A stretch of DNA of 59,110 nt, counting the filler, from an uncultured virus (IMG/VR IMGVR_UViG_2061766007_001796) (Duplodnaviria; Heunggongvirae; Uroviricota; Caudoviricetes). It is 6 parts of one record of this genome, joined end to end, with 100 filler letters (N's around TTAATTAATTAA, not from the genome) between each part and the next. Parts side by side here need not be neighbours in the genome. Positions count along the whole stretch, not along the records: positions 2,638 to 19,143 come from IMGVR_UViG_2061766007_001796; 5 more parts are not named here. One strand, given 5' to 3'. Positions 6,970 to 41,829 of the stretch are shown piece after piece. Made by a program: the position numbers and the translations under genes. Positions within the stretch are counted from its first letter, which is position 1. Each line of letters starts with the position of its first letter. The notes beneath the pieces were generated by a model. The model was not told the origin of the DNA. It worked only from the letters and a program-made list of their open reading frames with translations, and searched no databases.

Positions 6970-9900
6970 TGCTGGTGGCACATTAGCGTTTAATCAATTA
7001 GTGAATAATGGTAACTTTGCTAGTTCAAGTTTAACAGGGTTTTTCTCTGGGAGAGCAACAAGCACTGTGTCTAGTGGTGCTTGCCAAACAGTTGGCACAG
7101 CAAACGATTTCTATATTGAATGGACTTTCAAAACAGTAGCAGGTCATAAATACTTATCTTTTGTTACAGTAAAATGCGACCAATCATATACAAATTATGG
7201 AGTTAGAGTTTATAACTACTTTAATAATCTTGCCAACAACGTCCATACTGATACATTAACGAACACAAGTTATACCACAGTAAGTTTAATGTTTAGTCCA
7301 TCTTCAACCAACAATAATTCTTTATTAAGAATTGTGTGTCCTATTTATGATAGTAATGGTAGCAGTTTTACAAGTAAGAATTGGCAAATCTTTGACCTTA
7401 CCGATATGTTCGGTGGAACTATCGCAGATTATATCTACAACCTAGAACAAGCGACTGCTGGTGCTGGTGTAGCGTGGTTTAAGCGTTATTTCCCAAATAC
7501 CTATTACGCATATAACGCTGGCACATTAGTCAATGTCCAAACAAGTGGCAAAAAGTATGTTGGGTTTAATCAAGCAAAATCAATTACAGTAGGTAGTGCT
7601 ACTTATAGATATGGCGACGCTCTTGTTATTAACTGTGATTTATTACCAGATACATATTATTGTTTAAGTCTTGTTGGTAAAAATGGATATGTTTATTACA
7701 ACAACGAAGTGATTACTACTGGGTGGACACAATTATCTTGTAATGGCAACAGACAATATATTGTTTTAAAAACCATATCGGATTATGGCAAATTGTTAGC
7801 AAGCAAGACTGCTAATGGTTATGTATTCTTAAAGAACAACGCAGATAGTCAAACTAATGAGTTTAGCGATGTCTGCCTTAATTTCCACTACGATGGTGAA
7901 AGAGATGGCGAATACGAGCCATACGGAAGCAACGAATACGCATTAAGTCCTGTTGAATTGCGTGGTATTGCAAAGAAAGACGCACAAGGTAATCTCTACT
8001 TTGATGGTGATAGTTATACACCAGACGGTAAGGTTGTTAGAAGATATGCCATTGTTGATTTAGGTAGTTTGACTTGGTATAGAGCCAAATGGGGAAATAA
8101 TTATACTTTTTTAAGTGGTGGTATAGCGAGTTTAGTGAATTGGAATGTTCCTTATGGCGAATTAGAAAAACGATTTATGGTATCATCAAAGTTTTTAAGG
8201 GCGCAATTATGGGTTGTTGAAAATGGAGATGTTGATAATACTATCACAATTAGAAACTCTGGCGCAGAAGGAAGTATAGAAGTCCGTTGTGATACATATA
8301 CAGACGCTACTGCATTCAAAACAGCAATTTCTGGTATCTATCTCCTTTACGAACTTGCTACACCAACCGAAGAAACCACCGATACCTATCAAGAAACACA
8401 ACAAGTTGATAACTNNNNNNNNNNTGAAAACCAAGCAGTCACTAAAGAACTTAATAAAAAAGCATATATTGATGGCAACTACCAAACAATGTCCGTAGGC
8501 GAAGCAACCGATTTATCTACAACTCGTGTTATTGATAACCCAGAAGATAGTTGCCCACCGATTACAATGGGTGTTACTGGTGGCAATGCCGAAATTAGAA
8601 ATGGCTTGCAAAAGTTCCAATATATGGAAGGCAATAGCATTGTTTTTAATCAATTCTGCGATAGAACAACAGCGTTGACTGCAAGTAGTGGAAATCAACT
8701 ATGGGCGCAAGCAGGAAACGCTTTTAGCATTCCACAAGGTCATAAAGTTTTGTTTGCAGTCCACCAAGATATGACAATTGCAGAAGCGCAAAGAAATACT
8801 TTTCTTGCTTATTATAGTGGTGGAACAGTAGTTAAGCAAAGTGAAGCAAGCAATAGAAACTTGCAAGCAGGAACATATTATTGGATATTTACAACAACTG
8901 GCACATTAACTCATATTGGTATTTGGTTGCAAGGTTATGGTAGTGGAAATGCAAGTTATAGCAATTTCCAAGTCTTTGATTTAACCGCTATGGGATTAGC
9001 AGACATTACTACTTATGACGAGTTTAAATCTCGTTTCCCATTAGATTACTACGCCTATAATGCTGGCTCTATTTTAAGTGCTAAAACCAATGCCTTAATC
9101 AGTAGAAAAAGACAACAATGGGATGAAGTGTGGGAACAATACGGCATAAATGATACAACTGGATTACCAGACGAAACTAGTGGTCAAATAAGAAGCAAAA
9201 ACTTTATTCCAGTTATTCCTAATACCAATTATTATTTCCGTTGTAGCAATTCACCTTATCTTTGGGCATACGCTTATGATGAAAATGGAAATTACATAGA
9301 CCGAATTAGAAAAGATGGAGCAACAGACTTAAAAAATAAGTTTGCTCAAACACCAAATAATTGTAGATATTTGAAAATTAAAACATTAGAAACTACTTAC
9401 CACAATGACATTACCATTTCCGTTTACTTTGAAGATGGCGAAGGATATGACCAATACTATCCTTACGACCCACAAGTAGTTGAATTGCCTAACATTGAAT
9501 TACGAGCCATTGGTGATATTAAAGATATTGCCTATGCAAGTGGTGGTGGTAAGAGAAAAGTTTGGTTAGTAGATTTAGGAACATTAAACTGGAATTATTA
9601 TTCTTCTGGTAGTTATTTTTGGACAAACTTACCAAAAGCACCAAAAAACAAGACATTGAATATGATAATTTCAAATGGTGCTTATACAGTTGTTAAGGAT
9701 GGAACTACAAATAAGTCAATAAAAACTTGGGGTAATACAGACTTGCCTTTAAGAATTGTTATTACAGATAGTTCATTTACGGATGTAACAACGTTTACAA
9801 GTTCTTTGCAAAATGTTTACTTACTCTACGAACTTGCAACCGAAGAAGATTTAACCGAAAACGAAGGCTGGGTTGAAAATGTTGTCGTTGACAACTATGG

Positions 9901-10200
9901 CACACTAGAGTTCGTTACTGACCCACAACAAATCCCACAAGTCAAGCAACCATATTTCATTGAATACACAATTTCGTTGAAAGAGTTTTTAGATGGCGCA
10001 TATCAAAGAGCAAGTGGTAATCCACAAGAAATTGCTTTGGTTGAAGAAGTTGAACAACTTGAAAGTGATTTAGCAAATGGTAATGTTATTCCATTACTTG
10101 CCAACAATTTAAGTACCAAAGTAGTCCAAAACGATGTTGACGCTTTCAACTTTAGAACTGCTGGTGGCTCACTAGAAATCGGTGAAACTTGCAAAGTCAA
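6970..10200 (+). CDS. Tail fibre / receptor-binding protein, allele A (modules out of order across the gap at 8415-8424)
   Basis: Shares scaffold motifs with 11270-16015 (FNQLVNNGNFAS, YFPNTYYAYN.GTLV, NFHYDGERDGEYEPY, RRYAIVDLG.L.W, YELAT) but has different inserts. Confidence 0.75.
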
Positions 10201-10210
10201 NNNNNNNNNN

Positions 10211-11159
10211 TGAGGCGTGGCTCACTGACCATAGTGTTATGACCTTAATGAAATGGGTGTTTGACACGTTAGAGTTTGCTATTATTATGTCGTTTGTTTT
10301 AAGAAAGCCAGTCAAATGGTATTATGTTCTAGTGTTTTATGGCATTGCCATGATATTTGCTGGCTTTATTCATGTGCCTATGATTTTTTATAGGCTATAT
10401 CCTTTTGCGTTTTATTTTCTAGTACCAATACTAGACATGTTTATTGAAGACAAACGTTTTAGTGTAAAGAACTATGGCTTTGAAATGATTAGATTTGTTA
10501 TAGCAATGGCTGTCGTCTTTACGCTTCAAATTATGATTTTTGTAATCAAAAGCGGAAGTTTCACGGTGGAAAGAAAAGATTTTTCTTTGTCTGCCAACTT
10601 TTGCTATGCAATAGAATATGACATTGCCCTATTAGTAATTCTATATACATTAGAATTATTTATACATAGGGAGAAAGGAGACGGCAAATTATGGACGATG
10701 TACCATGGTGCTGGTTTATCTTCCCAGATTTCGAAGAAGAAATCGCGGAGATTGAAACTGACGAAGACACAGAAGAATAGGCTTTTTTGGCTTTACGCTA
10801 AGTTCTATCTTACTCAACTTGGTGCGTTCTTACTTTTAATGGTTTTGCCTTTCTTTTTAGGCAAATTATTTGAGTTCCTAATGATGTATTTAGCATTCGC
10901 GCTTGCTAGATACTTACTTGGGTTCAAGTATTCNNNNNNNNNNNNNNNNNNNNNNNNNNNNNNNNNNNNNNNNNNNNNNNNNNNNNNNNNNNNNNNNNNN
11001 NNNNNNNNNNNNNNNNNNNNNNNNNNTTTATTGGGAGTTGGGTTAGCGGTGCTTCTCCACTTATCTTATAAATACAAAGGCATGTTTCTCTTTGCTCAAG
11101 TTGCTAGACCCGATAAGTTCGCTGAATTATACGTGATTATGGATGGAGCAACTATATAA
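10211..11159 (+). CDS. Multi-TM protein with C-terminal AgrB-like domain, allele 1 (5' part and catalytic motif in gaps)
   Basis: Homologous to 16992-18143; ends identically in DGATI-stop. Confidence 0.75.
10691..10780 (+). CDS. Nested out-of-frame AgrD-like propeptide MDDVPWCWFIFPDFEEEIAEIETDEDTEE (29 aa), allele 1
   Basis: AAGGAG at 10675-10680 then ATG; Cys plus four hydrophobic residues followed by an acidic tail; same length and stop position in allele 2. Confidence 0.8.
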   Translation: MDDVPWCWFIFPDFEEEIAEIETDEDTEE

Positions 11160-11197: not shown

Positions 11198-14100
11198 GGT
11201 ACAACCGTTGTTCCAAAAGCCCAAAAAGACGAAAGTGGCAACAACATCAAATCAACTTATGTTGCTGATATGACACATGCTTTAAGCGGTAGCACAACAC
11301 AAGTTACTTTGTCAATTAGTTTGAGAAACAAATTGGGTGAAGTCGTTTCTTCCTTTAATCAAGCCATTGGTGGTGCGTCTTCAACCTATGCTGGCATTTT
11401 AACTTCTGCCGATAAAGTCAAGATTGACGCTATTGCTGGTGACATTGCTACTGCGCTTGCTCAAGCAAAGGCATACTCAGACGCACTCGTAGCACGTGCT
11501 AACTTAGTGACCATCATTGGTAACGCCAGTTCTAGTTTAAGTGGCTTAATGAGCGCTACTGATAAAACTAATCTTGACACTTTGATGGCGTTATTAGGTA
11601 GCAATGACGCTGATACGGTTGTTGACACAATCAGAGAAGTTCTTGCTATTTTTGAAAACTACCCAGAGGGTGCAGACCTCGTTGGTGAACTTGCTAAAAA
11701 AGTTAATGTTCTTGACATTGTCAACGTTTTAACAAGCGACGAAACTGCTAAACCATTAAGTGCTAAGCAAGGTAAAGTTTTAAAAGGTCTTATCGACGCA
11801 TTAGACAGTGCTAAAGCAAACGCTAGTGATGTCTATACAAAAGGCACAATTGATACTCTCTTAAGCGGTAAAGCCGATAAGAGCGATACATATACAAAGG
11901 CTGAAATCCAATCTTTAATTGCTGGTTTCGTTTTTGCGGATATTGACGACGAACTTGACGAAGAAAGCACAAACGCTATCGAAAACCAAGCAGTCACTAA
12001 AGAACTTAATAAAAAAGCGTATATTGATGGTAACTATCCAACTTTAATTGTTGGTCAAGCGGATAGTATTACAAGCAACAGAGTTATTGAAGATATTGAC
12101 CAAGCGTGTCCTCCAATTACGATTGGAACAACTGGTGGCGAAGCGGAAATTGCCGACGGTTTTAGCAGATTTAAAGAATTATATGGTAATTCTTTTGTTT
12201 GGAACAGTTTATTTAAAATAAGAACCAACGCTTCTACTTATTTAGGCGTTACTTGCACCCCAAACGCAAACGGTTCAATTACCTTAACTGGCGGTATCAC
12301 TGGAAATGACAACGCTTACATTAACTTAACAAGTGCAAAGTTTAGGCTTGTTAATGGTCATAAATATTTAGTGTTGGGCGCTAGTGCTTTGTGTAGTGCT
12401 ATTACAAACTCGTTTGTTCACATTAACTTAACTGGTAGCAATATGACACAAGTTACGAGCGACAGCATTATAACTTGTGGAGTTAATGGTGAAGCATATT
12501 TCTATTTGCTTATTCCAACCTCCGCTACAAGCGTTAACTTTACTGGCTTCTTCCAAATCTATGACCTTACAATGATTTATGGTAGTGGTAAAGAGCCAAC
12601 TACGGTTGACGAGTTTAAATCTCGTTTCCCTAATAATTACTACGCTCACGACGCAGGAACACCGATTTCTTCAAAATCTTATCAACTTATTTCTCGTGGA
12701 GAAAATCAATGGAACGAAGAATGGGGTTGCTATCACTGGGTTGGCGGAACTAGACACGATTACGCTAACGGTATTGGTTGCTCTGAACCAGTGAGAGTTA
12801 TTGGTGGTGAAACTTACTATTTCGAATACCCAGCGGGTGCAACAATAGGTTTTGTAACCCTTGATATTAACGGCAATTTAATTGGTGCTAATGATAATTA
12901 TGTAAACAATTCGAGCCATAGAACAACCCTCCCACAAAACTGTGCTTATATTGGCTTTTGGGTTAACAATTATGGTTTGGTATATCATAACGATGTTATG
13001 GTTCGTTTGTATTGGGATACACCTAATAGAAACTATGTCGCAAACGATTTTCAAGTAGTCGATTTGCCAAACATTGAATTAAGAAGTGTTGGAGATGTTG
13101 AAGACGTTTTATATTCAACTGGTGGTGGTAAGAGAAGGATTGGAAAGTTAATTGTAGATGGCACAAACAATACTAATATGAGTGTTGCCACAAGTAACAA
13201 TATCACAAGATTTACTGTTGATATTTCTAACGCAAAGGCGCCTGCTGGTAATTATTACATTGCAGAAACATTGTTGTCTGCCTTTGAAAACGTTAGTTTC
13301 GACGATATAGCAGGATATAACGGTTCGTTAACAAAAAACAGCGTTGCCTTATATAGTTCGACTAGAATTAGTTTTTATGTAGTTGGCAAAACAACATTGG
13401 CTGAATACCAAGCGTATTTCCAAAGCAACCCATTAACAGTTTTATTTGAACTAGCCGAAGAACAAGATATAACCGAAAACGAAGGCTGGGCTGAACTTGT
13501 AAAAGTTAATAACTTTGGCACATTAGAGTTTGTTTCAAATCCACAACAAGTTCCACAGCCAGAGCAAGCGTATTATATAGAATATACTGCAAATTATGTT
13601 GACTTTATTGATACAGCGTTTGCTAACACGGATGGTGACGCAAACAACTTTGTTGTAAGAGGCGAGTTTGAAGACGTTATCGAAGGTAGAACAGTGGTTG
13701 CTAAAGCACAACTTGCAGACAATCTTGATAGTAAAGTAGTCCGAAACGATGTTGACGCTTACACATTTAGAACTGCTGGTGGCTCACTAGAAATCGGTGA
13801 AACTTGCAAAGTCAAAGAAATCGTTGGTGGCACATTAGCGTTTAATCAATTAGTGAATAATGGTAACTTTGCAAGTAATAGTGGTTGGTTAGGTGCAAAA
13901 GGTTCTGTCTCAATAAGCAACAATACACTTATTTACACCGCAACAGAAATTGCCAATAACTACTATGACAACTATGCTTATCAAGATGTTTATTCAAGAG
14001 TAGTTGTTGGACATAAATACTTGGCTATTTGTTACGCAAAATCATCAAAAGCATTCCCATCAAGATTGTTTGTTTCTGGTTCTAGCATTATTGCTAGGAA

Positions 14101-16015
14101 TGTTGTTAATTTAACAAATAGTTACTCTATGTTATATGGTTTCTTCCAAATCACAGGAATTGCTTGGAATAGATTAGAAGTCTCACCAGATATGTCAACT
14201 TTAGGTGCAGTTAATGATACAATTCAAGTTCAGAACTTTGTATTATTTGACCTTACTGCTATGTTTGGTTCAACTATTGCCGATTATATCTGCTCGTTAG
14301 AAACTGCAACTGCTGGTGATGGTGTGGCTTGGTTTAAAAAGTATTTCCCAAATACCTATTACGCATATAACACTGGCACATTAGTTAATGTTAAAACAAG
14401 TGGCAAAAAGTATGTTGGGTTTAATCAATTAGATTTAGTGAATTATAAAGGAACACTGGCAAGAATATCTGCTTATAGCACAACCGCTAGTGATATTACA
14501 ATTACCACAGACGGAACGAATACAGACTGCTATGTCGGTAGCGTTACAGCACCTACATTAAACCCAACAAATGATTTACCAATTAAAGTAGTTGGTGGGC
14601 AATCTTATAATTTATCTGTTACTTTGCCAACAAATGTTTCAAATGTTACTAGATTTGCTATGTGCTTTGGTTGGTATGACGCTAACTTTAACTACATCAA
14701 CTTCAACTGGATGGACTTTGGCAAAGTTGCAGGCAGTAGAATAAGTGCCAACAAAACAGCACCAGAAAACGCTAGATATATGACAGTAAGATTTGGTGTT
14801 AATCAAACTGCTATGAGCGTTGAAACATTTACTTTCAAAGATATTTGTGTCAACTTCCACTACGACGGTGAAAGAGATGGCGAATATGAGCCATACGAAG
14901 AACACACATGCCAATATGAAGATATTGATTTAATCGGTATTTCAAAAATTGACGCACAAGGTAATCTATACTTTGATGGCGACAGTTATACACCAGACGG
15001 TAAGGTTACTAGAAGATATGCCATTGTTGATTTAGGAACGCTAAATTGGAAAAAAGATAATGGTTATACTGATGTATTCTATGTTAGTGATTTAACTGGA
15101 ATTAAAAGAGTAGGTGGTAATGACTTATCTAACATTATTGCAAGCCAAAGATATGCAACAGCAATTCAATCGCAAGTTAGTGGAACAAATGCTCAATATG
15201 ACAAAACAATTTCAACATTAAACTGGACTGATGGTTTATTGTTAAGAGATAGTAGTTATAGTGATAAAGATGTTTTGAAATCAAGTTTAAGTGGTGTTTA
15301 TCTTGTCTATGAACTTGCAACTGAAACCGAAGAAACCACCGATACCTATCAAGAAACACAACAAGTTGATAACTGGGGAACTGAACAATACTTACCACCA
15401 GAAGAAGATACAAGACCATGCGAAATACCAGTAGGTCATAGCACAGACTACTTGCTTGACATTCGTTCAAAGGTTGAGATTATGCCAGATTTACCAAGCG
15501 ACGATGGTGTCTATGCTTGTAAAGTTGAAAGCGGAACTGCTGAATATGTGCCATTAGGTGCTTGGTTAAGCGATAATGGTTATGTAAATCAAATTAGTGC
15601 TAACGCTATTAAAGAAAACATTGGTGGATTGTTAAGACACCAATTAGTGGCGCAAGTTGTCGCTGGAGGCGGAACATTAGATTTTAATAACACTGCTTGG
15701 GTCGATTTAGGAACATTAGACAACTGGTCTAGTAACACAACAAGCGGTGCTTCAAAACGATTATTCCAAAGCGTTAGTTTGGCTAATTTGGCTAAGAAGC
15801 CATCAAGCAGTGGAACAAAAGCAAATATCTTATGCGTTATATATAAGACAGTTGACGCTAATACTCAATGGACTGACGCAACTACATCAAATATCGGTTT
15901 GACTAATAGTGGAACACTAACCATTTTAGACCAAACAAAACAGAGTTTAGACGCAACTGCATTCAAAAATGCTATGAAAGGTGTATTACTTGCCTACGAG
16001 AAAGCGAGTTCATAA
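11198..16015 (+). CDS. Tail fibre / receptor-binding protein, allele B, two tandem modules with CBM-like inserts
   Basis: About 1600-codon open frame; fibre-type N-terminal repeats (LSAKQGKVLKGLID, KADKSDTYTKAEI); repeated VDLGTL.W and YELA motifs. Confidence 0.8.
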   Translation, partial: GTTVVPKAQKDESGNNIKSTYVADMTHALSGSTTQVTLSISLRNKLGEVVSSFNQAIGGASSTYAGILTSADKVKIDAIAGDIATALAQAKAYSDALVARANLVTIIGNASSSLSGLMSATDKTNLDTLMALLGSNDADTVVDTIREVLAIFENYPEGADLVGELAKKVNVLDIVNVLTSDETAKPLSAKQGKVLKGLIDALDSAKANASDVYTKGTIDTLLSGKADKSDTYTKAEIQSLIAGFVFADIDDELDEESTNAIENQAVTKELNKKAYIDGNYPTLIVGQADSITSNRVIEDIDQACPPITIGTTGGEAEIADGFSRFKELYGNSFVWNSLFKIRTNASTYLGVTCTPNANGSITLTGGITGNDNAYINLTSAKFRLVNGHKYLVLGASALCSAITNSFVHINLTGSNMTQVTSDSIITCGVNGEAYFYLLIPTSATSVNFTGFFQIYDLTMIYGSGKEPTTVDEFKSRFPNNYYAHDAGTPISSKSYQLISRGENQWNEEWGCYHWVGGTRHDYANGIGCSEPVRVIGGETYYFEYPAGATIGFVTLDINGNLIGANDNYVNNSSHRTTLPQNCAYIGFWVNNYGLVYHNDVMVRLYWDTPNRNYVANDFQVVDLPNIELRSVGDVEDVLYSTGGGKRRIGKLIVDGTNNTNMSVATSNNITRFTVDISNAKAPAGNYYIAETLLSAFENVSFDDIAGYNGSLTKNSVALYSSTRISFYVVGKTTLAEYQAYFQSNPLTVLFELAEEQDITENEGWAELVKVNNFGTLEFVSNPQQVPQPEQAYYIEYTANYVDFIDTAFANTDGDANNFVVRGEFEDVIEGRTVVAKAQLADNLDSKVVRNDVDAYTFRTAGGSLEIGETCKVKEIVGGTLAFNQLVNNGNFASNSGWLGAKGSVSISNNTLIYTATEIANNYYDNYAYQDVYSRVVVGHKYLAICYAKSSKAFPSRLFVSGSSIIARNVVNLTNSYSMLYGFFQITGIAWNRLEVSPDMSTLGAVNDTIQVQNFVLFDLTAMFGSTIADYICSLETATAGDGVAWFKKYFPNTYYAYNTGTLVNVKTSGKKYVGFNQLDLVNYKGTLARISAYSTTASDITITTDGTNTDCYVGSVTAPTLNPTNDLPIKVVGGQSYNLSVTLPTNVSNVTRFAMCFGWYDANFNYINFNWMDFGKVAGSRISANKTAPENARYMTVRFGVNQTAMSVETFTFKDICVNFHYDGERDGEYEPYEEHTCQYEDIDLIGISKIDAQGNLYFDGDSYTPDGKVTRRYAIVDLGTLNWKKDNGYTDVFYVSDLTGIKRVGGNDLSNIIASQRYATAIQSQVSGTNAQYDKTISTLNWTDGLLLRDSSYSDKDVLKSSLSGVYLVYELATETEETTDTYQETQQVDNWGTEQYLPPEEDTRPCEIPVGHSTDYLLDIRSKVEIMPDLPSDDGVYACKVESGTAEYVPLGAWLSDNGYVNQISANAIKENIGGLLRHQLVAQVVAGGGTLDFNNTAWVDLGTLDNWSSNTTSGASKRLFQSVSLANLAKKPSSSGTKANILCVIYKTVDANTQWTDATTSNIGLTNSGTLTILDQTKQSLDATAFKNAMKGVLLAYEKASS

Positions 16016-16027
16016 AGGAGATAACTT

Positions 16028-16171
16028 ATGATACATAAAATTGATAAAGGTGATTATTACTTAATCAAAGCCGATAGTGGCAAACTTCGTATCAAAGGTG
16101 ACGACAGAGTTTATAGCGGGGCTACTGAACTCAAAGACAAGCCACGTGAATATGAGGAAGTAATCGACTAA
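16028..16171 (+). CDS. Small protein (47 aa) after the tail fibre
   Basis: AAGGAG RBS; conserved allele at 16847-16990. Confidence 0.75.
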   Translation: MIHKIDKGDYYLIKADSGKLRIKGDDRVYSGATELKDKPREYEEVID

Positions 16172-16265
16172 TATGAAACTTCTAAAGGATAGTTTATATC
16201 TCACGAAACCTCAGTGGCGTAAATTATTCTTGGCGACGACTATTATGGTTGTCGCNNNNNNNNNN

Positions 16266-16833
16266 AGAACAATACTTACCACCAGAAGAAGACACAAGAC
16301 CATGTGAAATCCCAGTCGGTCATAGCACAGACTACTTGCTTGATATTAAGTCAAAAGTAGAAATCGCACCAGATTTACCAAGTGACGATGGTGTATATGC
16401 TTGCAAGGTTGAAAGTGGAACTGCCGAATATGTGCCATTAGGAACTTGGTTAAGTGATAATGGGTATGTAAATCAAATTAGTGCTAACGCAATTAAAGAA
16501 AACATTGGTGGTGCGTTAAGACATCAACTTGCTGAAAGTGCTAATATTGATTTCCATAATACAGCGTGGGTTGATTTAGGCGATTTGAATTGGGGATATG
16601 GAAATAATAGATTTAGTGCGACTGTAAGTGGTGCTGTGTCTGTTTCTCATAATTGTTTATGTCCATTATATAAAACCGCTGATGGTTGGGCTTCAAACCC
16701 AAGAGTTGATATGGAAATGTCATTTGGCTCAAATAGTTTATTATTTGTTCAAAACAATTCTTACACCGACGCAACAGCATTCAAAAACGCTATGAAAGGT
16801 GTATTACTTGCATACGAGAAAGCGAGTTCATAA
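16266..16833 (+). CDS. Tail fibre C-terminus, alternative allele
   Basis: Matches 15383-16015 with a different terminal insert; same end ...KGVLLAYEKASS. Confidence 0.8.
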
Positions 16834-16846
16834 GGAGGACTAATTT

Positions 16847-16990
16847 ATGGTTCACAAAATTGATAAAGGTTCTTATTTCTTAATCAAAGCCGATAGTGGC
16901 AAACTTCGTATTAAAGGTGACGACAGAGTTTATAGTGAGGCTACTGAACTCAAAGACAAGCCACGTGAATATGAGGAAGTAATTGACTAA
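16847..16990 (+). CDS. Small protein (47 aa), allele of 16028-16171
   Basis: AAGGAGG RBS; MVHKIDKGSYFLIKADSGKLRIKGDDRVYSEATELKDKPREYEEVID. Confidence 0.75.
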   Translation: MVHKIDKGSYFLIKADSGKLRIKGDDRVYSEATELKDKPREYEEVID

Positions 16991-16991
16991 T

Positions 16992-18143
16992 ATGAAACTT
17001 CTTAAGGATAGTTTATATCTCACAAAACCTCAGTGGCGTAAATTATTCTTGGCGACGACTATTATGGTTGTCGCCCTTTATATCGTTGCAATGGTTTTCT
17101 CGTTGTGCGGTAGCAAGTATTTTATTCTCAATTATCAAAACGAACAAATGGATAGGATACAAAATTGGCTAGAGAAGTATAATTTATCTAACGTAATCAA
17201 TTCAGTCTTTTGCGCCATAGAGTTTTTCATAATTGCAACTTTTATGGTTAAAAAGCCACCAAAGTGGTATCTCGTATTAGCATTTATAGTGTTGCCTTTG
17301 GTGCCACACTATATTTTCGGAAAACTACCAGACATTTATTATTCAGCATATCCATTTTTGTTTTATTTAATAGCACCGCTATTCTGTAAAAAGTTTGGCA
17401 AGGATTATGCCTTTTGTCTTTTGAGATTGTTAATTGCTATGGTTGTTGTTTTTATTTTACAAATAATGATATTTATTATTAAAAGCGGTGGATTAACTTT
17501 TGAAACTGTCATTTTTCCATTATCCAGTGCTTTTATTTATGCTTTAGAATACGATATAGCCTTATCAATAGTGCTTTTTACGATTGCGCTATTTTCCGAT
17601 AAGGAGAAAGGAGACAGCAAATCATGGGCGATTTCCCACAATGTTGGTTCATTTTCCCAGACTTCGAAGAAGAAGTCGCGGAAATTGAGTTTGACGAAGG
17701 CACAGAAGAATAGGCTTTTTTGGCTTTACGCTAAGTTCTATCTTACTCAANNNNNNNNNNTTCTTTGGTTAAGATTTTATCTTATTCAACTTGGTGGATT
17801 TTTACTTTTAATGGTTTTGCCTTTTCTTTTAGGAAAGGTTTTTGAGTTCTTGACCATGTATTTAGCATTCGCGCTTGCTAGATACTTACTTGGGTTCAAG
17901 TATTCGCTCCATTTTAAGAAAGAAACACTTTGTATTACCGTTGGCGCGGTAGTCTTCGGCATATTGTCACTTGCTGTCCCTTTCTTTTATGTCGTAGTCA
18001 TTATGGCTATCTTATTAGGAGTTGGGTTAGCGGTGCTTCTTCACTTATCTTATAAATACAAAGGTATGTTCTTGTTTGCGCAAATATCTAAACCCGATAA
18101 GTTCGCGGAGTTATATGTGCTTATGGATGGAGCAACTATATAA
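16992..18143 (+). CDS. Fusion membrane protein: about six N-terminal TM helices plus AgrB-like peptide-processing domain, allele 2
   Basis: ARYLLGFKYSL-H-FKKETL-C gives the R...H-x6-C arrangement of AgrB (His 17910-17912, Cys 17931-17933) after a TM hairpin; one gap join at 17751-17760. Confidence 0.75.
   Translation: MKLLKDSLYLTKPQWRKLFLATTIMVVALYIVAMVFSLCGSKYFILNYQNEQMDRIQNWLEKYNLSNVINSVFCAIEFFIIATFMVKKPPKWYLVLAFIVLPLVPHYIFGKLPDIYYSAYPFLFYLIAPLFCKKFGKDYAFCLLRLLIAMVVVFILQIMIFIIKSGGLTFETVIFPLSSAFIYALEYDIALSIVLFTIALFSDKEKGDSKSWAISHNVGSFSQTSKKKSRKLSLTKAQKNRLFWLYAKFYLTQXXXXLWLRFYLIQLGGFLLLMVLPFLLGKVFEFLTMYLAFALARYLLGFKYSLHFKKETLCITVGAVVFGILSLAVPFFYVVVIMAILLGVGLAVLLHLSYKYKGMFLFAQISKPDKFAELYVLMDGATI
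17624..17713 (+). CDS. Nested out-of-frame AgrD-like propeptide MGDFPQCWFIFPDFEEEVAEIEFDEGTEE (29 aa), allele 2
   Basis: AAGGAG RBS; residues 7-17 identical to allele 1 with four synonymous changes. Confidence 0.8.
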   Translation: MGDFPQCWFIFPDFEEEVAEIEFDEGTEE

Positions 18144-18205: not shown

Positions 18206-18958
18206 ATGAAAAATGAAAGCCTTTTTTATGTTTATGAATGGTTCGTTAAGAATACTGGCGAAGTCTTTTATGTTGGTAAAGGTTGCGGTAATAGATATAA
18301 AAGCACATCTAAGCGAAATAAGTGGTTCAAGGACTATATTAAAGCGTTTGAGTGCGAAGTAAGAATTATCAAACGTTTTGAAAACGAAGAAGAAGCGTTT
18401 GCTTTTGAACATAAAAGGATTATGGAACTCAAAGCGAGCAATTTAGCCAAAGCAAACCTTGATTATGGTGGCAAGGGTGGCAGTCATTTTGATTGGACTG
18501 ACGAGATGAAACAATACAAATCAGAGTACAACCCTATGAAATCATTTGAGCAACGCCAAAGAATGAAAGAAAATAACCCTATGAAGAACAAGCAAACGCA
18601 AGACATCGTTTACAATAAAACAAGAAAAAAAGTAGTCTTAAATGGTGTTATTTATAGTGGCGTTTTAGAGGCTTCACGAGTGACTAAGCACACAAGCAGT
18701 ACGATAGTTAAGTGGTGCAGACGTGGTTATGATAACAATGGCAAGCCTTGCAGGTATTTTAACGAAACACAAAAAGAAATACCTCTGGTTAAACAACTTC
18801 ACCCAAAATCAGCAACACCAAAAGCAGTCGTTGTAGACGGGGTTAGATTTGAAACGGTAGAAGACGGTGCTAAACATATTGGTGGCAACAGCAGTAATCT
18901 TATAAGGGCAATAAAAGCACATAGAGCGTATCTAGGTCACACTTGCTCATACGCATAA
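18206..18958 (+). CDS. GIY-YIG homing endonuclease with C-terminal NUMOD-like DNA-binding repeats
   Basis: YVYEW...FYVGKG..NR, later E (AFAFEH) and N (LANL..GG.G); NPM repeats; two HTH-like repeats. Confidence 0.8.
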   Translation: MKNESLFYVYEWFVKNTGEVFYVGKGCGNRYKSTSKRNKWFKDYIKAFECEVRIIKRFENEEEAFAFEHKRIMELKASNLAKANLDYGGKGGSHFDWTDEMKQYKSEYNPMKSFEQRQRMKENNPMKNKQTQDIVYNKTRKKVVLNGVIYSGVLEASRVTKHTSSTIVKWCRRGYDNNGKPCRYFNETQKEIPLVKQLHPKSATPKAVVVDGVRFETVEDGAKHIGGNSSNLIRAIKAHRAYLGHTCSYA

Positions 18959-19012
18959 CAATTACTGCTACAACACAAGTGGGTAGCCTATCTTTCGACG
19001 CTNNNNNNNNNN

Positions 19013-19143
19013 GCTTTTAATGGTTTTGCCTTTTGTTTTAGGCAAATTATTTGAGTTCCTAATGATGTACTTTGCATTCGCGCTTGCTAGGTGCTTACTT
19101 GGGTTCAAGTATTCGCTCCATTTTAAGAAAGAAACACTTTGTA
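19013..19143 (+). CDS. AgrB-like domain fragment, further allele
   Basis: LLMVLPFVLGKLFEFLMMYFAFALARCLLGFKYSLHFKKETLC; H-x6-C conserved. Confidence 0.7.
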
Positions 19144-19243
19144 NNNNNNNNNNNNNNNNNNNNNNNNNNNNNNNNNNNNNNNNNNNNTTAATTAATTAAN
19201 NNNNNNNNNNNNNNNNNNNNNNNNNNNNNNNNNNNNNNNNNNN

Positions 19244-19790
19244 ACACCAAGAACAACTTGCCAATGATAATGACCGTTTTCAAAGCATTACAACCATGCT
19301 CACTCAAGCAGATAGCGTTGATAGTATGAACAGCCTTTTGACTGACTATGGTTATGGTTCAGTTGACGCTAATGGCGAGTTCCAATGGGGTCAAAAACCA
19401 GCGGGTATGTCTGATGATGATTGGTATCAAATGAGATATTACTATGGTCTCCAAAAGAACGCTCTTGACCAAATGACTGGTTCAGCAAATACTCAATGGG
19501 CTGATAGATTGTTCCAACTTGGTGAATTAAAAGAAAAAGATGGTACATCTTTAAAAGAACTTACTCAAGCGCTTAACGCCAATTCGGCGACTAACCGTTA
19601 CGAAATTACTGGTGACGCTGAGTTAAAGAACTTCTATATGACTGCTAATAATGGTGACATTGCACAGATAAATACTGACGATGAGACAAAATACTGTATG
19701 TTTTATAATGGCAAACTTTATGTTGTTGATAGCGATTTAGTTAAAGGCAGAAAGCCAACCGTTGTAACAACGCTAAAAAGGAAAAAGTAA
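19244..19790 (+). CDS. Probable internal virion protein, C-terminal part, alternative allele
   Basis: Matches 21787-22030, then has a divergent C-terminal domain. Confidence 0.6.
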
Positions 19791-19810
19791 TCTCTTGAAA
19801 GGAGTTTGAC

Positions 19811-20345
19811 ATGCCTTCAAGAAACGAATATTTACAATCTTTAAATAGAATGAGGGCGAATTACCAAAACCAAGGTAATCCTCTTATTAACAGAGAAGAC
19901 GATAATGGCAACGTAGGAAATGAGTTATCCGCTTTTGCCTATATGAACACAACGCCAACCTCGTCAGCGTCTGAGCAAGCAAGCAAGCGAAGCGATTTTC
20001 TGGGCAAAACATTTGGCGCTATTGACGAGATTGCTTTTCAATTTGGCAGTGGCTATGTTAATGGCTGGGAAGGTGGCTTAGATTTAGGCGCTAACTTTTT
20101 AGGTTGGGCAACTAAAAACGACGACTTTACCAAATGGGCTAGACAAGATTTAGGTGCTGAAGCGGGCAGATTTATTCAAACCTACGCAAACCTAACTCCT
20201 TGGGCAATTGTTAATAATATTAGACAAGGAAACTATGCTGATAGAGATTGGTGGGGTAACGCTGTCGGTGGATTTGGCGACATTATGACATCTGCTTTTG
20301 GCGGTTGGGACGCTAACCAAATCGTTCAAGGCATTTTATCTGGTG
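19811..20345 (+). CDS. N-terminus of the giant polyvalent protein, alternative allele
   Basis: AAGGAG RBS; near-identical to 22343-22875. Confidence 0.7.
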
Positions 20346-20537
20346 NNNNNNNNNNTGGTGTTAACGATTATAATAAAAGACTTGTAGAATTAGACAGTGG
20401 TGCTGGTAGTGCTGGTGGTAGTGCTAATCCTTTTGCTAATCCCACCGCAGTTCAAGGCGCTGGTAGCACACCAAANNNNNNNNNNAAAGTCTTTAAGTTG
20501 CTCAAGAGAGGCTTCTTCAATAATCTTACGGTGCATA

Positions 20538-20695
20538 TTAGTCAAGGTATTCGACTGCGATAGCGATATTAGATGTAGTGATAGCGACACCAGTGTTGAC
20601 CACTGTTAATGTGACAGCAGAAGAGTTGCATGGCACTCTGACAATAGCGTCGAAAGATAGGCTACCCACTTGTGTTGTAGCAGTAATTGTTATGC
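20538..20695 (-). pseudogene. C-terminal remnant of a small beta-rich protein (resembles BclA C-terminal-like phage proteins); contig inverted
   Basis: Reverse complement matches 18954-19002 directly after the endonuclease; no start codon available. Confidence 0.45.
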
Positions 20696-20851
20696 NNNNN
20701 NNNNNNNNNNNNNNNNNNNTAAAGCAAACGCCATGAAATACACTCAAAACCAAATCAACGCTCAAGGTTTTGGAGGCACTGGTTATGGTTCTTCAATGCA
20801 AGGTGGTATCTATAACGCATATCTAAATAGATTNNNNNNNNNNAACTCATG

Positions 20852-21255
20852 AGCAACTTAAAGAGTTCGCTTATAGAGCCTTCGACATGATTAAAAGAAA
20901 CGTAGACGAAGAAACTTATGACGACATTGAATTGTTGCTTTATAAGGACGTTTATGGCTATCACTTTACCAAGTGGTTATTAGAGAAAGCATATTGTTGT
21001 ATGGAAAATGAAGATGGCACTAAAGGCGCGCATTGGTCGCTTGAGCAGACGAACAACGTTGCCAAAAATAATGGCGTCACCTTTGAACATTTCAACGAAT
21101 ATGACTGGAACTATGTTATGAATATGATGTATAGCGATTACTACAAAGCGGGTGGTAGCGATGTCAATTTTTATGTCGAACTTGCTAAAGCGTTTTTAAT
21201 GGACAAAGACGCTCCCGAAGGGAAGGCATTAAAATACTACCTTGCAATGAAATAA
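20852..21255 (+). CDS. Conserved hypothetical phage protein (GAHWS...YDWNYVMNMMYSDY); N-terminus MHRKIIEEASLEQLK lies on the inverted fragment 20486-20536
   Basis: Overlap gagcaacttaaaga between the fragments; followed by a terminator. Confidence 0.7.
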
Positions 21256-36034: not shown

Positions 36035-36534
36035 AGCAAGTCCTCCAAGTCTTTTTTATCTTTGCTACGTGTGTAGTGGATGTAATACTTCATTGTGGTC
36101 TCAAGCGACGTGTGACCTAGGTGTTCTTGAACCTCTTTGAGGTCATAACCTTTATCAAACATACGTGTCGCAAATGAGTGGCGTAATCCGTGAAGCGTGA
36201 TGTGTTGCAAACCAGCAAGTTCAAGGTGCTTATTCACGATGTCACGTATCTTGTGCCTGCTTACGTGAGCGCTNNNNNNNNNNATGACCTAGGTGCTCTT
36301 GAACCTCTTTGAGGTCGTAACCTTTGTCAAACATGCGTGTCGCAAATGAGTGGCGTAATCCGTGAAGCGTAATATGTTGCAAACCCGCAAGTTCGAGGTG
36401 CTTATTCACGATGTCACGTATCTTGTGCCTGCTTACGTGAGCGCTATTCGCTCCACAGAAGATAAACTCGTCAGCGTCAACCGCTCTTTCCTCAACATAC
36501 TTTTTGAGTTCTTCCATGAACGCCATTGGTAAGT
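36031..36534 (-). CDS. int: Tyrosine integrase, C-terminal catalytic fragments
   Basis: HGLRHSFAT (HxxR), HLGH, TTMKYY. Confidence 0.9.
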
Positions 36535-36566
36535 NNNNNNNNNNGTAATTAAATGTCCAAGGTATT

Positions 36567-36962
36567 TCACTCATATAACCACCTTCTAACGGTAGCAAAC
36601 TCTTCTTCAGTCAACGGCAATTGACCACCAACAATTTTTGAATACTCGTTGTATTCTTCGCAAGTTTCTAAAACATCGAAAGCACCAATGTTCACTTTTT
36701 TGTTTTTAACAATTTCTGAGGCTTCGAGGTCTTTTACCATTTTCATTACTTTGCTTTCGTCAATACCGATAAGCAAATCGATGTTCTTTTCTCTGCCGAT
36801 TTCTCTTAGATTGAATATAATGCTGTCGTCGATGGCTCTTAATCTCATAGTCGCCATATTAGTTACTAATTTACTAACAAAGTCGCCATCCGTAAAATTA
36901 TCATTTTTGGTTATCTTTGGTTCGCATACAATACGATAAATAAACTTGTGTTCGTCGTTCAT
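36567..36962 (-). CDS. Hypothetical protein present in only one variant
   Basis: GGAGG RBS; sits between the ASCH gene and the Cys-rich gene start. Confidence 0.65.
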   Translation of the reverse strand: MNDEHKFIYRIVCEPKITKNDNFTDGDFVSKLVTNMATMRLRAIDDSIIFNLREIGREKNIDLLIGIDESKVMKMVKDLEASEIVKNKKVNIGAFDVLETCEEYNEYSKIVGGQLPLTEEEFATVRRWLYE

Positions 36963-37702: not shown

Positions 37703-39591
37703 TTCAATTCTTCCTTATTGCTCTCTTTAATGACCGCTTTATCAAGGTCATAATAAATGTCACAGTATGTGCTGTCCCACGCGTCGTCAACATCGCTTAA
37801 GTACATAGTGTGTTTAGTGTCAATAGGATACCAAGACCTATTCCCACCGCCTTGTCTAGNNNNNNNNNNNNNNNNNNNNNNNNNNNNNNNNNNNNNNNNN
37901 NNNNNNNNNNNNNNNNNNNNNNNNNNNNNNNNNNNNNNNNNNNNNNNNNNNNNNNNNNNNNNNNNNNNNNNNNNNNNNNNNNNNNNNNNNNNNNNNNNNN
38001 NNNNNNNNNNNNNNNNNNNNNNNNNNNNNNNNNNNNNNNNTTTAATCCAGTTAATAGCGTAGTGTTTTTGTTCGTTAGCAATCATTTCTTTGAGGTCTTC
38101 GTCAGAGACAGGCTCTTCGTCTTTCATTAAGCGGAGACCTCTTAATCTTCGTATTTCGATATTATTATCAGTGAGGATGTTTCCTAAATCCTCTATTTTA
38201 GCGTAAGCACCTAAATCCATTTAATTACCNNNNNNNNNNNNNNNNNNNNNNNNNNNNNNNNNNNNNNNNNNNNTTAATTAATTAANNNNNNNNNNNNNNN
38301 NNNNNNNNNNNNNNNNNNNNNNNNNNNNNTATGGTTCTTTCCTCAACATACTTTTTGAGTTCTTCCATGAACGCCATTGGTAAGTGAACGTATCTATCGT
38401 GACCAGTTTTTGTGTGGTCTTTAAGAACGCCATTATTACCCACTTGCTTACGTATGACTATAAAACCGTGTGTAAAGTCTACGCAGTTTAGNNNNNNNNN
38501 NGTTCATTTTCGCTACATAGATAAGACCTTTGTCAGTTTCAATAGCATATAACCATTCAAAGGCAAGCGAATATTGCCCTAAATCAGCAACTGCATATTC
38601 TTCTCTCGCATACATTTGATATATCTTGCCATCTTTTCTTAACACAAACCAGTCACACAATTCTTCAATAGTGTCGGCTGAGGCAACAATGCTTTCTTTA
38701 TNNNNNNNNNNNNNNNNNNNNNNNNNNNNNNNNNNNNNNNNNNNNNNNNNNNNNNNNNNNNNNNNNNNNNNNNNNNNNNNNNNNNNNNNNNNNNNNNNNN
38801 NNNNNNNNNNNNNNNNNNNNNNNNNNNNNNNNNNNNNNNNNNNNNNNNNNNNNNNNNNNNNNNNNNNNNNNNNNNNNNNNNNNNNNNNNNNNNNNNNNNN
38901 NNNNNNNNNNNNNNNNNNNNNNNNNNNNNNNNNNNNNNNNNNNNNNNNNNNNNNNNNNNNNNNNNNNNNNNNNNNNNNNNNNNNNNNNNNNNNNNNNNNN
39001 NNNNNNNNNNNNNNNNNNNNNNNNNNNNNNNNNNNNNNNNNNNNNNNNNNNNNNNNNNNNNNNNNNNNNNNNNNNNNNNNNNNNNNNNNNNNNNNNNNNN
39101 NNNNNNNNNNNNNNNNNNNNNNNNNNNNNNNNNNNNNNNNNNNNNNNNNNNNNNNNNNNNNNNNNNNNNNNNNNNNNNNNNNNNNNNNNNNNNNNNNNNN
39201 NNNNNNNNNNNNNNNNNNNNNNNNNNNNNNNNNNNNNNNNNNNNNNNNNNNNNNNNNNNNNNNNNNNNNNNNNNNNNNNNNNNNNNNNNNNNNNNNNNNN
39301 NNNNNNNNNNNNNNNNNNNNNNNNNNNNNNNNNNNNNNNNNNNNNNNNNNNNNNNNNNNNNNNNNNNNNNNNNNNNNNNNNNNNNNNNNNNNNNNNNNNN
39401 NNNNNNNNNNNNNNNNNNNNNNNNNNNNNNNNNNNNNNNNNNNNNNNNNNNNNNNNNNNNNNNNNNNNNNNNNNNNNNNNNNNNNNNNNNNNNNNNNNNN
39501 NNNNNNNNNNNNNNNNNNNNNNNNNNNNNNNNNNNNNNNNNNNNNNNNNNNNNNNNNNNNNNNNNNNNNNNNNNNNNNNNNNNNNNNNNNN

Positions 39592-40032
39592 TAACTTGTT
39601 ATTCACGGTCTTCTCTTTAAGTCCTTTAGAAGCCAAATTAGCGCGGAAAGCGTCGACATTAGATATTTCAAACGCTTTATCTACTTTAGTGGTGTCGCCT
39701 AAGACTGGGTAAAGATAGTTTTTGAACGCCAATTTATAATTATAAATTGTGTCGTCGTCTATGCCCTCACTTTTGCAAACACGATAAAATGCCTCGCATA
39801 ATTGCTCAAGTGTAAGTGCGTCTCCCTCGTGCCAACTGATTTTTCTTTTGGTCTTATCTTTTTCTATTTCAGCGTGCTCGATGGATTGCATGTAACGAAT
39901 ACCGACTTTGTTATCACCAGTGATTTTCCAGTCTTTATTCTTTATGTTTATGTTTTGCCATTTGCCGTTTGGCAGTTTGTATTTGTAGTTAATGTAGTAA
40001 ACATTTCTACTGGTATCTTTAACTATTGCCAT
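39592..40032 (-). CDS. int: Tyrosine integrase N-terminus (arm-binding and core-binding region)
   Basis: AGGAGG RBS; continues in allele fragments 41046-41552 and 40856-41035 containing YGALRIGE (catalytic R). Confidence 0.8.
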
Positions 40033-40855: not shown

Positions 40856-41829
40856 GCGTATAACTATAAAACCATGTGTAAAGTCTACACAATTTAGTGT
40901 AATTGCTTGCCATTCGCCAATACGCAATGCCCCATAGAATAATGTTAGCACAGGGACACGCCATTCACTATCTATTTCTTCAAAAGAAGAAATAAACTTT
41001 CTAACATCTTCTTCTCCGTTGACGAAAAAGTTTTCNNNNNNNNNNGGTAATTGCTTGCCATTCGCCAATACGCAATGCCCCATAGAATAATGTTAGCACA
41101 GGGACACGCCATTCACTATCTATTTCTTCAAATGAAGAAATAAACTTTCTAACATCTTCTTCTCCGTTGACGAAAAAGTTTTCTTTTTCAGTAATACGAG
41201 ACGTTTCTTTTAAAGGTTCGAGTAGGTCAATTGCGTCGTCCGCCATTTCACGTGAGATATACTTCCTCTTTTTAGCGAACTTGAGGAGATTTTTAACCGC
41301 GACTAACTTATTGTTCACGGTCTTTTCTTTAAGCCCTTTAGAAGCCAAATTAGCGCGAAAAGTATCGACGTTAGATATTTCAAACGCTTTATCAACTTTA
41401 GTGGTGTCGCCTAAAACTGGGTAAAGATAGTTTTTGAACGCCAATTTATAGTTATAAATTGTGTCGTCGTCTATGCCCTCGCTTTTGCAAACACGATAAA
41501 AAGCCTCGCATAATTGCTCAAGTGTAAGTGCGTCTCCCTCGTGCCAACTGATNNNNNNNNNNCAACTTATTGTTCACTGTCTTCTCTTTAAGCCCTTTAG
41601 AAGCCAAATTAGCGCGGAAAGCGTCGACATTAGATATTTCAAACGCTTTATCAACTTTAGTGGTGTCGCCTAAAACTGGGTAAAGATAGTTTTTGAATGC
41701 CAATTTATAGTTATAAATTGTGTCGTCGTCTATTCCCTCACTTTTGCAAACACGATAAAACGCCTCGCATAATTGTTCGAGTGTAAGTGCGTCTCCCTCG
41801 TGCCAACTGATTTTTCTTTTGGTCTTATC
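40856..41829 (-). CDS. int: Integrase middle fragments from several alleles
   Basis: Overlapping copies of LAFKNYLYPVLG...TVNNKL...LFYGALRIGEWQAIT. Confidence 0.8.

Follow-up and report, generated by a model that had tools for sequence, protein, structure and literature searches.

We describe here a small gene that is very probably overprinted, out of frame, inside the gene of an AgrB-like phage membrane protein and whose product may be a substrate of that same protein. Both genes lie on a stretch of 59,110 nucleotides, filler included, from the uncultured virus IMGVR_UViG_2061766007_001796 (Caudoviricetes), which was analysed as a whole and is called the window below. The larger gene, the host gene, is present in two copies, A and B (Table 1), and encodes a six-helix membrane domain, a disordered linker and a core related to AgrB, the membrane enzyme that makes the quorum-sensing peptides of bacterial agr systems. 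In the linker region of copy B, a 29-codon open reading frame (ORF) begins at an internal ATG behind a Shine-Dalgarno (SD)-like sequence. An earlier reading made from the sequence alone had proposed this ORF and its internal AAGGAG, and both were found exactly where it had placed them. That sequence-only reading took the system for a single locus with the ORF in the linker between two membrane bundles; the position in the linker stands, but the second copy had been overlooked, as had the C-terminal helix-turn-helix (HTH) domain of the relatives.

The ORF, its ATG and the SD core GAAAGGAG are present in 17/17 genes examined, namely the two window copies and those of loci L001-L005, L007-L012, L014 and L021-L023. 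Three loci were dropped before counting: L013 duplicates L003 exactly, L006 is nearly identical to L002 and encodes an identical peptide, and in L015 the region is missing. The conservation extends to distant members of the family: the host proteins of L021-L023 share 27-33% identity with that of L005, and the base composition of their genes is different; their nested peptides, MGDAPGCWWVFPDFEEMVAEELADEE, MDLPPCWWVFPDVDEMFAEVLAEEE and MPDNPYCLWFFPDYDELVAEELSNEDEDE, each stand behind GAAAGGAG. The nested frame thus recurs far beyond chance.

Selection acts on the nested frame itself. A codon alignment of 13 genes with pairwise protein identities of 47-66% gave a third-position entropy of 0.59 bits for the host codons in the 40 overlap columns versus 1.22 bits elsewhere (Mann-Whitney p = 1.5e-11); the minimum among 318 other 40-codon windows of the alignment was 1.05. 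The difference between third- and second-position entropy (H3-H2) was -0.16 in the overlap versus at least +0.48 elsewhere. It is therefore the second position of the host codon that varies most in the overlap, and variation follows the wobble (third) position of the nested frame. Substitution patterns (Nei-Gojobori) agree with this. For the host frame, the proportion of synonymous differences (pS) is 0.72 in the rest of the gene and 0.32 in the overlap, and the ratio of nonsynonymous to synonymous change (dN/dS) is 0.15 and 0.79, respectively; for the nested frame, pS and dN/dS are both 0.42 in the overlap, versus a pS of 0.26 and a dN/dS of 1.8 in the rest of the gene. Even the two copies in the window bear the same imprint: 12 nested codons differ between them, six of these silently in the nested frame, and the host frame has three silent and 12 replacement changes there. 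The Cys, Phe, Ile and Asp of the presumptive ring and cleavage site are preserved between the copies via silent changes. An overprinted gene should keep its start signal and open frame in all relatives, hold back synonymous change in the host frame and be under purifying selection in its own; the nested ORF shows all three, and from this combination we are highly confident that it is such a gene. Even if its peptide had a role other than the one discussed below, an overprinted gene conserved in 17/17 cases, under a constraint stronger than that on the host frame, would add a clear new case to the dual coding known from phages.

The host protein belongs to a family of 153 relatives, retrieved by a word-seeded search, which are mostly 430-450 amino acids long and encoded on metagenome contigs of up to 192 kb; one of them is labelled 'accessory gene regulator B family protein' by its source. 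It is a family of ruminant-gut phages and essentially confined to phage contigs. Among 158 cellular genomes of the order to which the metagenome-assembled genome (MAG) G001 belongs, one carried a member, and in G001 the phage copy is the sole AgrB match, next to two unspecific HATPase_c_5 matches. Alignments A1 and A2 gave the domain order of the family: six-helix membrane domain, disordered linker, AgrB core with invariant Arg and His-x6-Cys, and usually a C-terminal HTH. The AlphaFold2 (AF2) model of the relative P0020, with a mean predicted local distance difference test score (pLDDT) of 79, has about six membrane helices in residues 15-221, a basic disordered linker in residues 223-252 (pLDDT <50), four further helices that bear the invariant Arg..Gly..His-x6-Cys and a helical C-terminal domain of ~55 residues. 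It is this disordered linker that coincides with the overlap. According to the positive-inside rule, linker, catalytic loop and HTH should all be cytoplasmic.

The catalytic residues of Staphylococcus aureus AgrB are R70, G75, H77 and C84 (as given in the accessible part of PMC10196373). The R..H-x6-C motif that had been noticed in the C-terminal half of the host protein is encoded by codons 17880-17882 (Arg), 17910-17912 (His) and 17931-17933 (Cys). The His/Cys pair and its upstream Arg are invariant in 37/37 and 43/43 aligned relatives, and of 31 divergent representatives in which the loop is covered, 29 have both His and Cys. Pfam family PF04647 is matched by 35 of the 37 aligned relatives at E<=0.01 (best 3.3e-8); the L003 copy, with 30.7 bits over model positions 3-118 of 185, exceeds the curated cut-off of 23 bits. 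The closest structural match in BFVD is a 429-residue viral protein named Accessory gene regulator B (E 1.2e-6, TM score 0.47-0.49). Similarity to AgrB of the Clostridioides difficile phage phiCDHM1 is weak (hhalign E 0.083 and 0.016), yet Arg, His and Cys fall on the Arg, His and Cys of that enzyme. This subfamily has a 3-residue insertion and a Ser in place of the G75 equivalent; the canonical short spacing is found in more distant representatives. The sequence-only reading had made its case depend on an AgrB relationship, on His/Cys conservation and on recurrence of the nested frame in homologues, and all three were found. By its sequence, the second half of the host protein is a cut-down AgrB core and not a full AgrB: the AgrB domain of the AF2 model has four helices, as opposed to six in the full-length enzyme of ~190 residues.

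The six-helix domain in front of this core is of a different kind. Neither the window copy nor its relatives matched any Pfam family in this part; a search of the ESM Atlas gave nothing usable (best score 0.80, TM score <=0.39), and no similarity to the AgrC sensor or AgrB of phiCDHM1 was seen (E 0.52 and 0.65). For the host gene as a whole no PHROG was assigned, NCBIfam gave no match for the window copy or P0020, and the region found no counterpart among INPHARED phages by megablast or tblastn. A solved structure for the host protein was found neither by sequence profile nor by Foldseek at E<=0.001, and no high-resolution structure of AgrB itself was available as of 2023, according to the part of PMC10196373 accessible to us. 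Stand-alone relatives of the size of AgrB core plus HTH (180-203 residues) do exist; a search for the DNA of such split relatives with alignments A7, A8 and A10 returned only stand-alone HTH genes (L025-L028, of which L026 alone was opened) or nothing. No RNA data were among the sequencing runs listed as carrying the locus.

What does the nested gene encode? All 17 peptides have the layout M-x(4-10)-(Cys/Ser)-x4-Pro-(Asp/Asn), with Cys in five and Ser in 12 cases, followed by a tail of 15-22 residues with a net charge of -5 to -11. The copy B peptide consists of a six-residue head, Cys-Trp-Phe-Ile-Phe, Pro and an acidic tail. Replacements among the 13 peptides of alignment A3 are conservative (I/V/F, D/E, N/D). 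Cys and Ser alternate at the position of the ring nucleophile, as in AgrD; the AgrD ring of phiCDHM1 is SVWYI. Such an alternation is typical of thiolactone and lactone forms. AgrD has a 24-25-residue amphipathic leader, a 7-9-residue autoinducing peptide (AIP) and a 14-15-residue charged tail, and AgrB cleaves it after the fifth ring residue (PMC10196373, accessible part). The peptide had been called AgrD-like in the sequence-only reading, and ring and acidic tail indeed occur in all 17, but neither a leader nor a match to an AgrD model was found. The peptides resemble a mini-AgrD on paper; by the model test they are not members of the AgrD families.

On these grounds we favour, with some reserve, the reading that the nested product is a leaderless AgrD-like precursor that would be cleaved and cyclised by the AgrB core. 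The internal SD sequence and ATG on the mRNA of the membrane protein would start translation in the +2 frame, across the region of the disordered cytoplasmic linker. In the leaderless mini-AgrD so produced, a short head would precede a Cys or Ser and four residues of aromatic or hydrophobic character, with Pro and the acidic tail coming last. The AgrB-like core from the same locus, whose Arg/His/Cys loop is predicted to be cytoplasmic, would cut off the acidic tail after the fifth ring residue and then close a five-residue thiolactone, or a lactone in the Ser forms. With no leader to remove, no second protease would be needed. Processing and cyclisation, and likewise export and signalling, are steps that we infer. 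Most relatives have an HTH attached to the enzyme, encoded directly in front of a conserved phage operon, and processing or sensing of the peptide may thus be coupled to the control of phage genes; the window copies retain enzyme and peptide but have lost the HTH.

Several observations weigh against a precursor role. Not one of 13 nested peptides matched an AgrD model of NCBIfam or Pfam, even at E<=10, whereas AgrD of phiCDHM1, used as positive control, matched TIGR04223 at E 1e-11. An amphipathic leader is missing, with 4-10 residues before the Cys/Ser in 17/17 peptides. The P-x-x-P motif, which phiCDHM1 AgrD carries (PMC3901668, accessible part), is absent; the conserved Pro of A3 is a single one directly after the ring, and this Pro is present in 17/17. 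Whereas classical agr systems have hypervariable rings, the one seen here is strongly conserved. On the side of the enzyme, the window copy reaches 18.1 bits (E 0.0018) against PF04647 and stays below the cut-off, and two of the 31 divergent representatives break the catalytic pair (P0154 lacks the Cys, P0166 the His). The AgrB part spans model positions 29-116 in the window copy, or 3-118 in L003, of 185, so that the C-terminal third is absent; in S. aureus AgrB this third holds K129-131, which are required for AIP formation (PMC10196373, accessible part). In addition, no AgrC- or AgrA-type gene, kinase or LytTR regulator was found in the window, nor any LytTR in G001, an incomplete MAG and the sole one with a copy.

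The missing AgrD match, the missing leader, the conserved ring and the cut-down core all speak for another reading, in which the nested gene is translated but its product is no AgrB substrate. The peptide could instead be a small acidic regulator with the tethered HTH or the membrane domain as its binding partner, or its translation could tune expression of the downstream half of the host gene. All the evidence for selection fits this reading equally well, and we regard it as a possible, though less probable, explanation. It gives no obvious reason for the invariant (Cys/Ser)-x4-Pro-acidic layout, with a Cys/Ser swap at exactly the one position where an AgrB substrate needs it, nor for the place of the nested gene inside the only AgrB-type gene of the locus. 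Binding to the HTH in particular is at odds with the window copies, which retain the peptide despite the loss of the HTH.

Conservation at the level of the nucleic acid, due to an RNA structure or an internal regulatory or recombination site with the ORF left untranslated, would likewise constrain the synonymous sites of the host frame, as any nucleotide-level element would. We consider it very unlikely: in the overlap, variation is periodic by nested codon and freest at the wobble position of that frame, the nested dN/dS and the conservative replacements are those of a protein, and start, stop and SD are kept in 17/17 genes, even at the low host identity and different base composition of L021-L023. 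Still more improbable is a programmed -1 frameshift that gives the six-helix domain an alternative C terminus and yields no free peptide. The +2 frame is indeed open for 24-214 codons upstream of the ATG in L021-L023 and L011. In 13/17 genes, however, a nested-frame stop lies 1-7 codons before the ATG (in copy B the TAA at 17600-17602), so that a shift would have to occur within 21 bases at most; the sequence inspected showed no canonical slippery heptamer there, and the conserved SD and ATG would be left unexplained; internal initiation is the route consistent with the upstream stops. Finally, a chance ORF, for which one could invoke a Lys/Ser-rich linker that reads out of frame as an acidic open frame (AAG-rich host codons give GAA/GAG in the +2 frame, and 8% of the stop-to-stop runs in the +2 frame of these genes reach 36 codons or more), is considered refuted by entropy, dN/dS and conservation across clades and by synonymous resampling of the host codons, in which ATG and open frame arose in 0.1-12% of trials per sequence, with a product over the 13 sequences of 1.8e-20 that assumes independence of related genes and is indicative only.

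The HTH of the relatives deserves attention with regard to a possible output. HTH_36 was matched by 4/37 and GerE by 1/37 of the C-terminal domains, and the domain superimposes on the RcsB DNA-binding domain with a root-mean-square deviation of 1.1-1.3 Å over 44-46 columns and on phage sigma-70 region 4 proteins with 1.5-1.8 Å. According to its predicted fold, it is an HTH of the sigma-region-4/LuxR type. In the relatives, the AgrB-like gene follows tail-fibre genes and precedes the conserved operon. This operon (L001, L002, L005, L009, L003, L008; window 20887-21255) encodes proteins of 112-125 residues starting with MPYDQFGNF and of 85-87 residues starting with MSNPFN, a Gly-rich membrane protein of 180-209 residues, a 135-136-residue protein ending in VEYL(D/G) and a DUF7841 protein (window copy E 1.8e-25). 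In L026 (2504-2725) a free-standing 73-residue HTH, preceded by a 107-residue membrane protein, lies at the syntenic position, so that the HTH can occur without an AgrB core. Since the HTH adjoins the conserved operon and the 73-residue HTH takes the same place in a related phage, it probably controls this operon.

Both window copies and P0001, a relative 95% identical to copy B, lack the HTH, and a six-frame scan of the window with HTH profile positions 126-185 gave no match. Immediately downstream of copy B, a GIY-YIG homing endonuclease gene sits in its place (Table 1). The two copies share an identical MDGATI* end and the identical 27 bases downstream, which suggests that an endonuclease cassette has replaced the HTH.

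It is tempting to speculate, although we think it improbable as a whole, that the locus is a complete, kinase-free phage communication device built on agr chemistry. One mRNA would give the leaderless precursor of a cyclic peptide and a polytopic protein with three tasks: signal production by the AgrB core, export or sensing by the six-helix domain, and a direct answer via a membrane-tethered HTH acting on the adjacent operon, in a manner like arbitrium but unrelated to AimP/AimR. The six-helix domain diverges fastest, with 46% identity (67/145) between copies A and B versus 90% (75/83) for the AgrB core. If such a device existed, copies lacking the HTH, as in the window, would be signal-only or signal-jamming variants.

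As in the agr systems of S. aureus and clostridia, there is a membrane enzyme with an Arg..His-x6-Cys loop and, encoded at the enzyme gene, a small putative precursor with Cys or Ser plus four residues and a charged tail. Unlike there, the enzyme comprises only the N-terminal two thirds of AgrB, preceded by an unrelated domain of six helices and in most cases followed by an HTH; the precursor has no 24-25-residue leader and no TIGR04223 match and lies out of frame inside the enzyme gene, and AgrC/AgrA were not found in the window. The closest phage precedent is the agr3 locus of phiCDHM1 (agrC, agrB, agrD; C. difficile; HG531805; PMC3901668, accessible part), which also is an AgrB/AgrD pair of a temperate phage adjoining the late or lysis region, has an aromatic Ser-type ring and has a small sigma-like gene nearby. 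Its genes, in contrast, are separate, full-length and canonical (AgrB 197 residues; AgrD 37 residues with leader and PxxP) and are accompanied by a kinase. The sigma-like gene (L017, 28744-28932; 62 residues, 'putative sigma factor protein') stands beside agrC-agrB-agrD and echoes the fusion of AgrB to a sigma-region-4 domain.

In Enterococcus faecalis, the fsrD propeptide has an initiation of its own and is read from inside the reading-frame region of fsrB (PMC7028047, accessible part, citing Nakayama 2006). Unlike the gene described here, which is internal, in the +2 frame and uses the same bases for two unrelated sequences, fsrD lies at the 3' end of fsrB and in frame. In the literature accessible to us, part of it incomplete, we found no description of a nested, out-of-frame or overprinted agrD or of an AgrB-HTH fusion. 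What appears to be new is the form that the putative agr-type chemistry takes here, namely fused, overprinted, leaderless and without a kinase; agr genes of phages and the in-frame fsrD were already known.

Small genes that lie fully inside a larger one in another frame are known from Rz1 inside Rz of phage lambda and comS inside srfA of Bacillus subtilis. The products of Rz and Rz1 work together. Both pairs are unrelated to the present one in proteins and functions, and no enzyme-substrate relation is known for either.

If the peptide is made and cyclised, the locus would be the smallest known agr-type signal factory and the first in which a precursor is nested out of frame within the very gene that encodes its processing enzyme, where it is invisible to gene callers. 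It would also mean that AgrB chemistry can act on a leaderless substrate and that, in phages of ruminant-gut Firmicutes, AgrB has been rewired to act through a DNA-binding output with no kinase involved. With one gene of ~1.3 kb, the family offers a compact system for studies of AgrB catalysis, and it provides a way to test for peptide signalling in temperate phages beyond those with arbitrium.

Table 1 Features of the host gene copies, their nested ORFs and the surrounding record in the window.
Feature	Position	Strand	Remarks
Host gene copy A	10212-11159	+	Match to family profile; 5' end lost to gap 10201-10211; catalytic loop under N run 10935-11026; GATI* end
Nested ORF of copy A	10691-10780	+	MDDVPWCWFIFPDFEEEIAEIETDEDTEE; SD 10669-10681
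Stub of another host-gene copy	16173-16253	+	First 27 codons, then scaffold gap
Host gene copy B	16992-18143	+	ATG 16992 (TTG at 16983); six-helix membrane domain, disordered linker, cut-down AgrB core; GATI* end, no HTH
SD-like sequence	17601-17614	+	AAGGAGAAAGGAGA; AAGGAG 17601-17606, GGAGA 17610-17614
Nested ORF of copy B	17624-17713	+	+2 frame of host gene, ATG, 29 codons: MGDFPQCWFIFPDFEEEVAEIEFDEGTEE
Scaffold artefact in host gene	17747-17785		10-N gap plus duplicated flank 'LWLRFYLIQ', 13 spurious codons; Logan contigs, 4/4 runs
AgrB-type catalytic loop	17880-17933	+	R297..G301..H307-x6-C314, window numbering
GIY-YIG homing endonuclease	18206-18958	+	phrog_314 E 4.9e-14; I-TevI DNA-binding domain E 3.6e-4; at the HTH position of relatives
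AgrB-core fragment	19014-19143	+	Contig end, between 10-N gap and contig spacer; same R..H-x6-C motif
Contig spacer	19144-19243		N..TTAATTAATTAA..N; six-frame stops, N runs on both flanks

The stretch around the AgrB-like gene resembles a temperate phage, with a G+C content of ~35%, tail-fibre genes, an integrase, an HTH_3 repressor and RecT/YqaJ. Its record, a scaffold with many 10-N gaps, is not a finished genome, and the contig spacer shows that the window is a concatenation of contigs, so that neighbourhood across the spacer carries no meaning. The assembly was checked against Logan public contigs from four DNA runs of one bovine-gut sample, which may be the source sample. The nested ORF is covered by these contigs, and two contig records (X3 record 13 and X4 record 21) match it without differences. 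Contigs of all four runs connect 17746 directly to 17786; the gap and duplicated flank between them are therefore a scaffold artefact, and the true protein has 370 residues, which is also the length of P0001. The contigs also span the end of the host gene (MDGATI*) into the endonuclease gene.

The fragment near the end of this contig does carry the motif that the sequence-only reading had seen there, but it is no second gene. Its protein is identical to the P0001 variant, and the 17 letters that set it apart were found at 17826-17884 of the main gene in contigs of the same sample, so that it represents an assembly or strain variant. Close by, a peptide ITITATTQVGSLSFDA is encoded twice, on the plus strand at 18955-19003 after the endonuclease and on the minus strand at ~20650-20700 within ORF 20538-20765. 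This ORF (minus strand) is a homologue of the conserved 136-residue downstream protein, and public contigs run past 19002 into it. Order and orientation of the pieces near 18955-20700 are unreliable. Farther along, integrase-like pieces were seen on the minus strand in three separate ORFs (36242-36598, 38698-40032 and 41001-41444), and the 2-kb bin 38001-40000 has a G+C fraction of 0.18; the integrase may be broken, or its stretch gapped.

The copies of the host gene each follow a different tail-fibre gene. Tail-fibre genes or tips lie at 7001-10213, 11270-16015 and 16249-16833, their C-terminal parts are near-duplicates, and after each of them comes an AgrB-like copy or the stub. Either receptor-binding and signal cassettes are arrayed in tandem here, or the scaffolder has chained several strain variants. 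An ORF of 47 codons follows two of the three tail-fibre units (16028-16171 and 16847-16990). The second of these was considered as an alternative AgrD and rejected: it has no Cys, is not conserved upstream in other loci and travels with the duplication of the tail-fibre tip.

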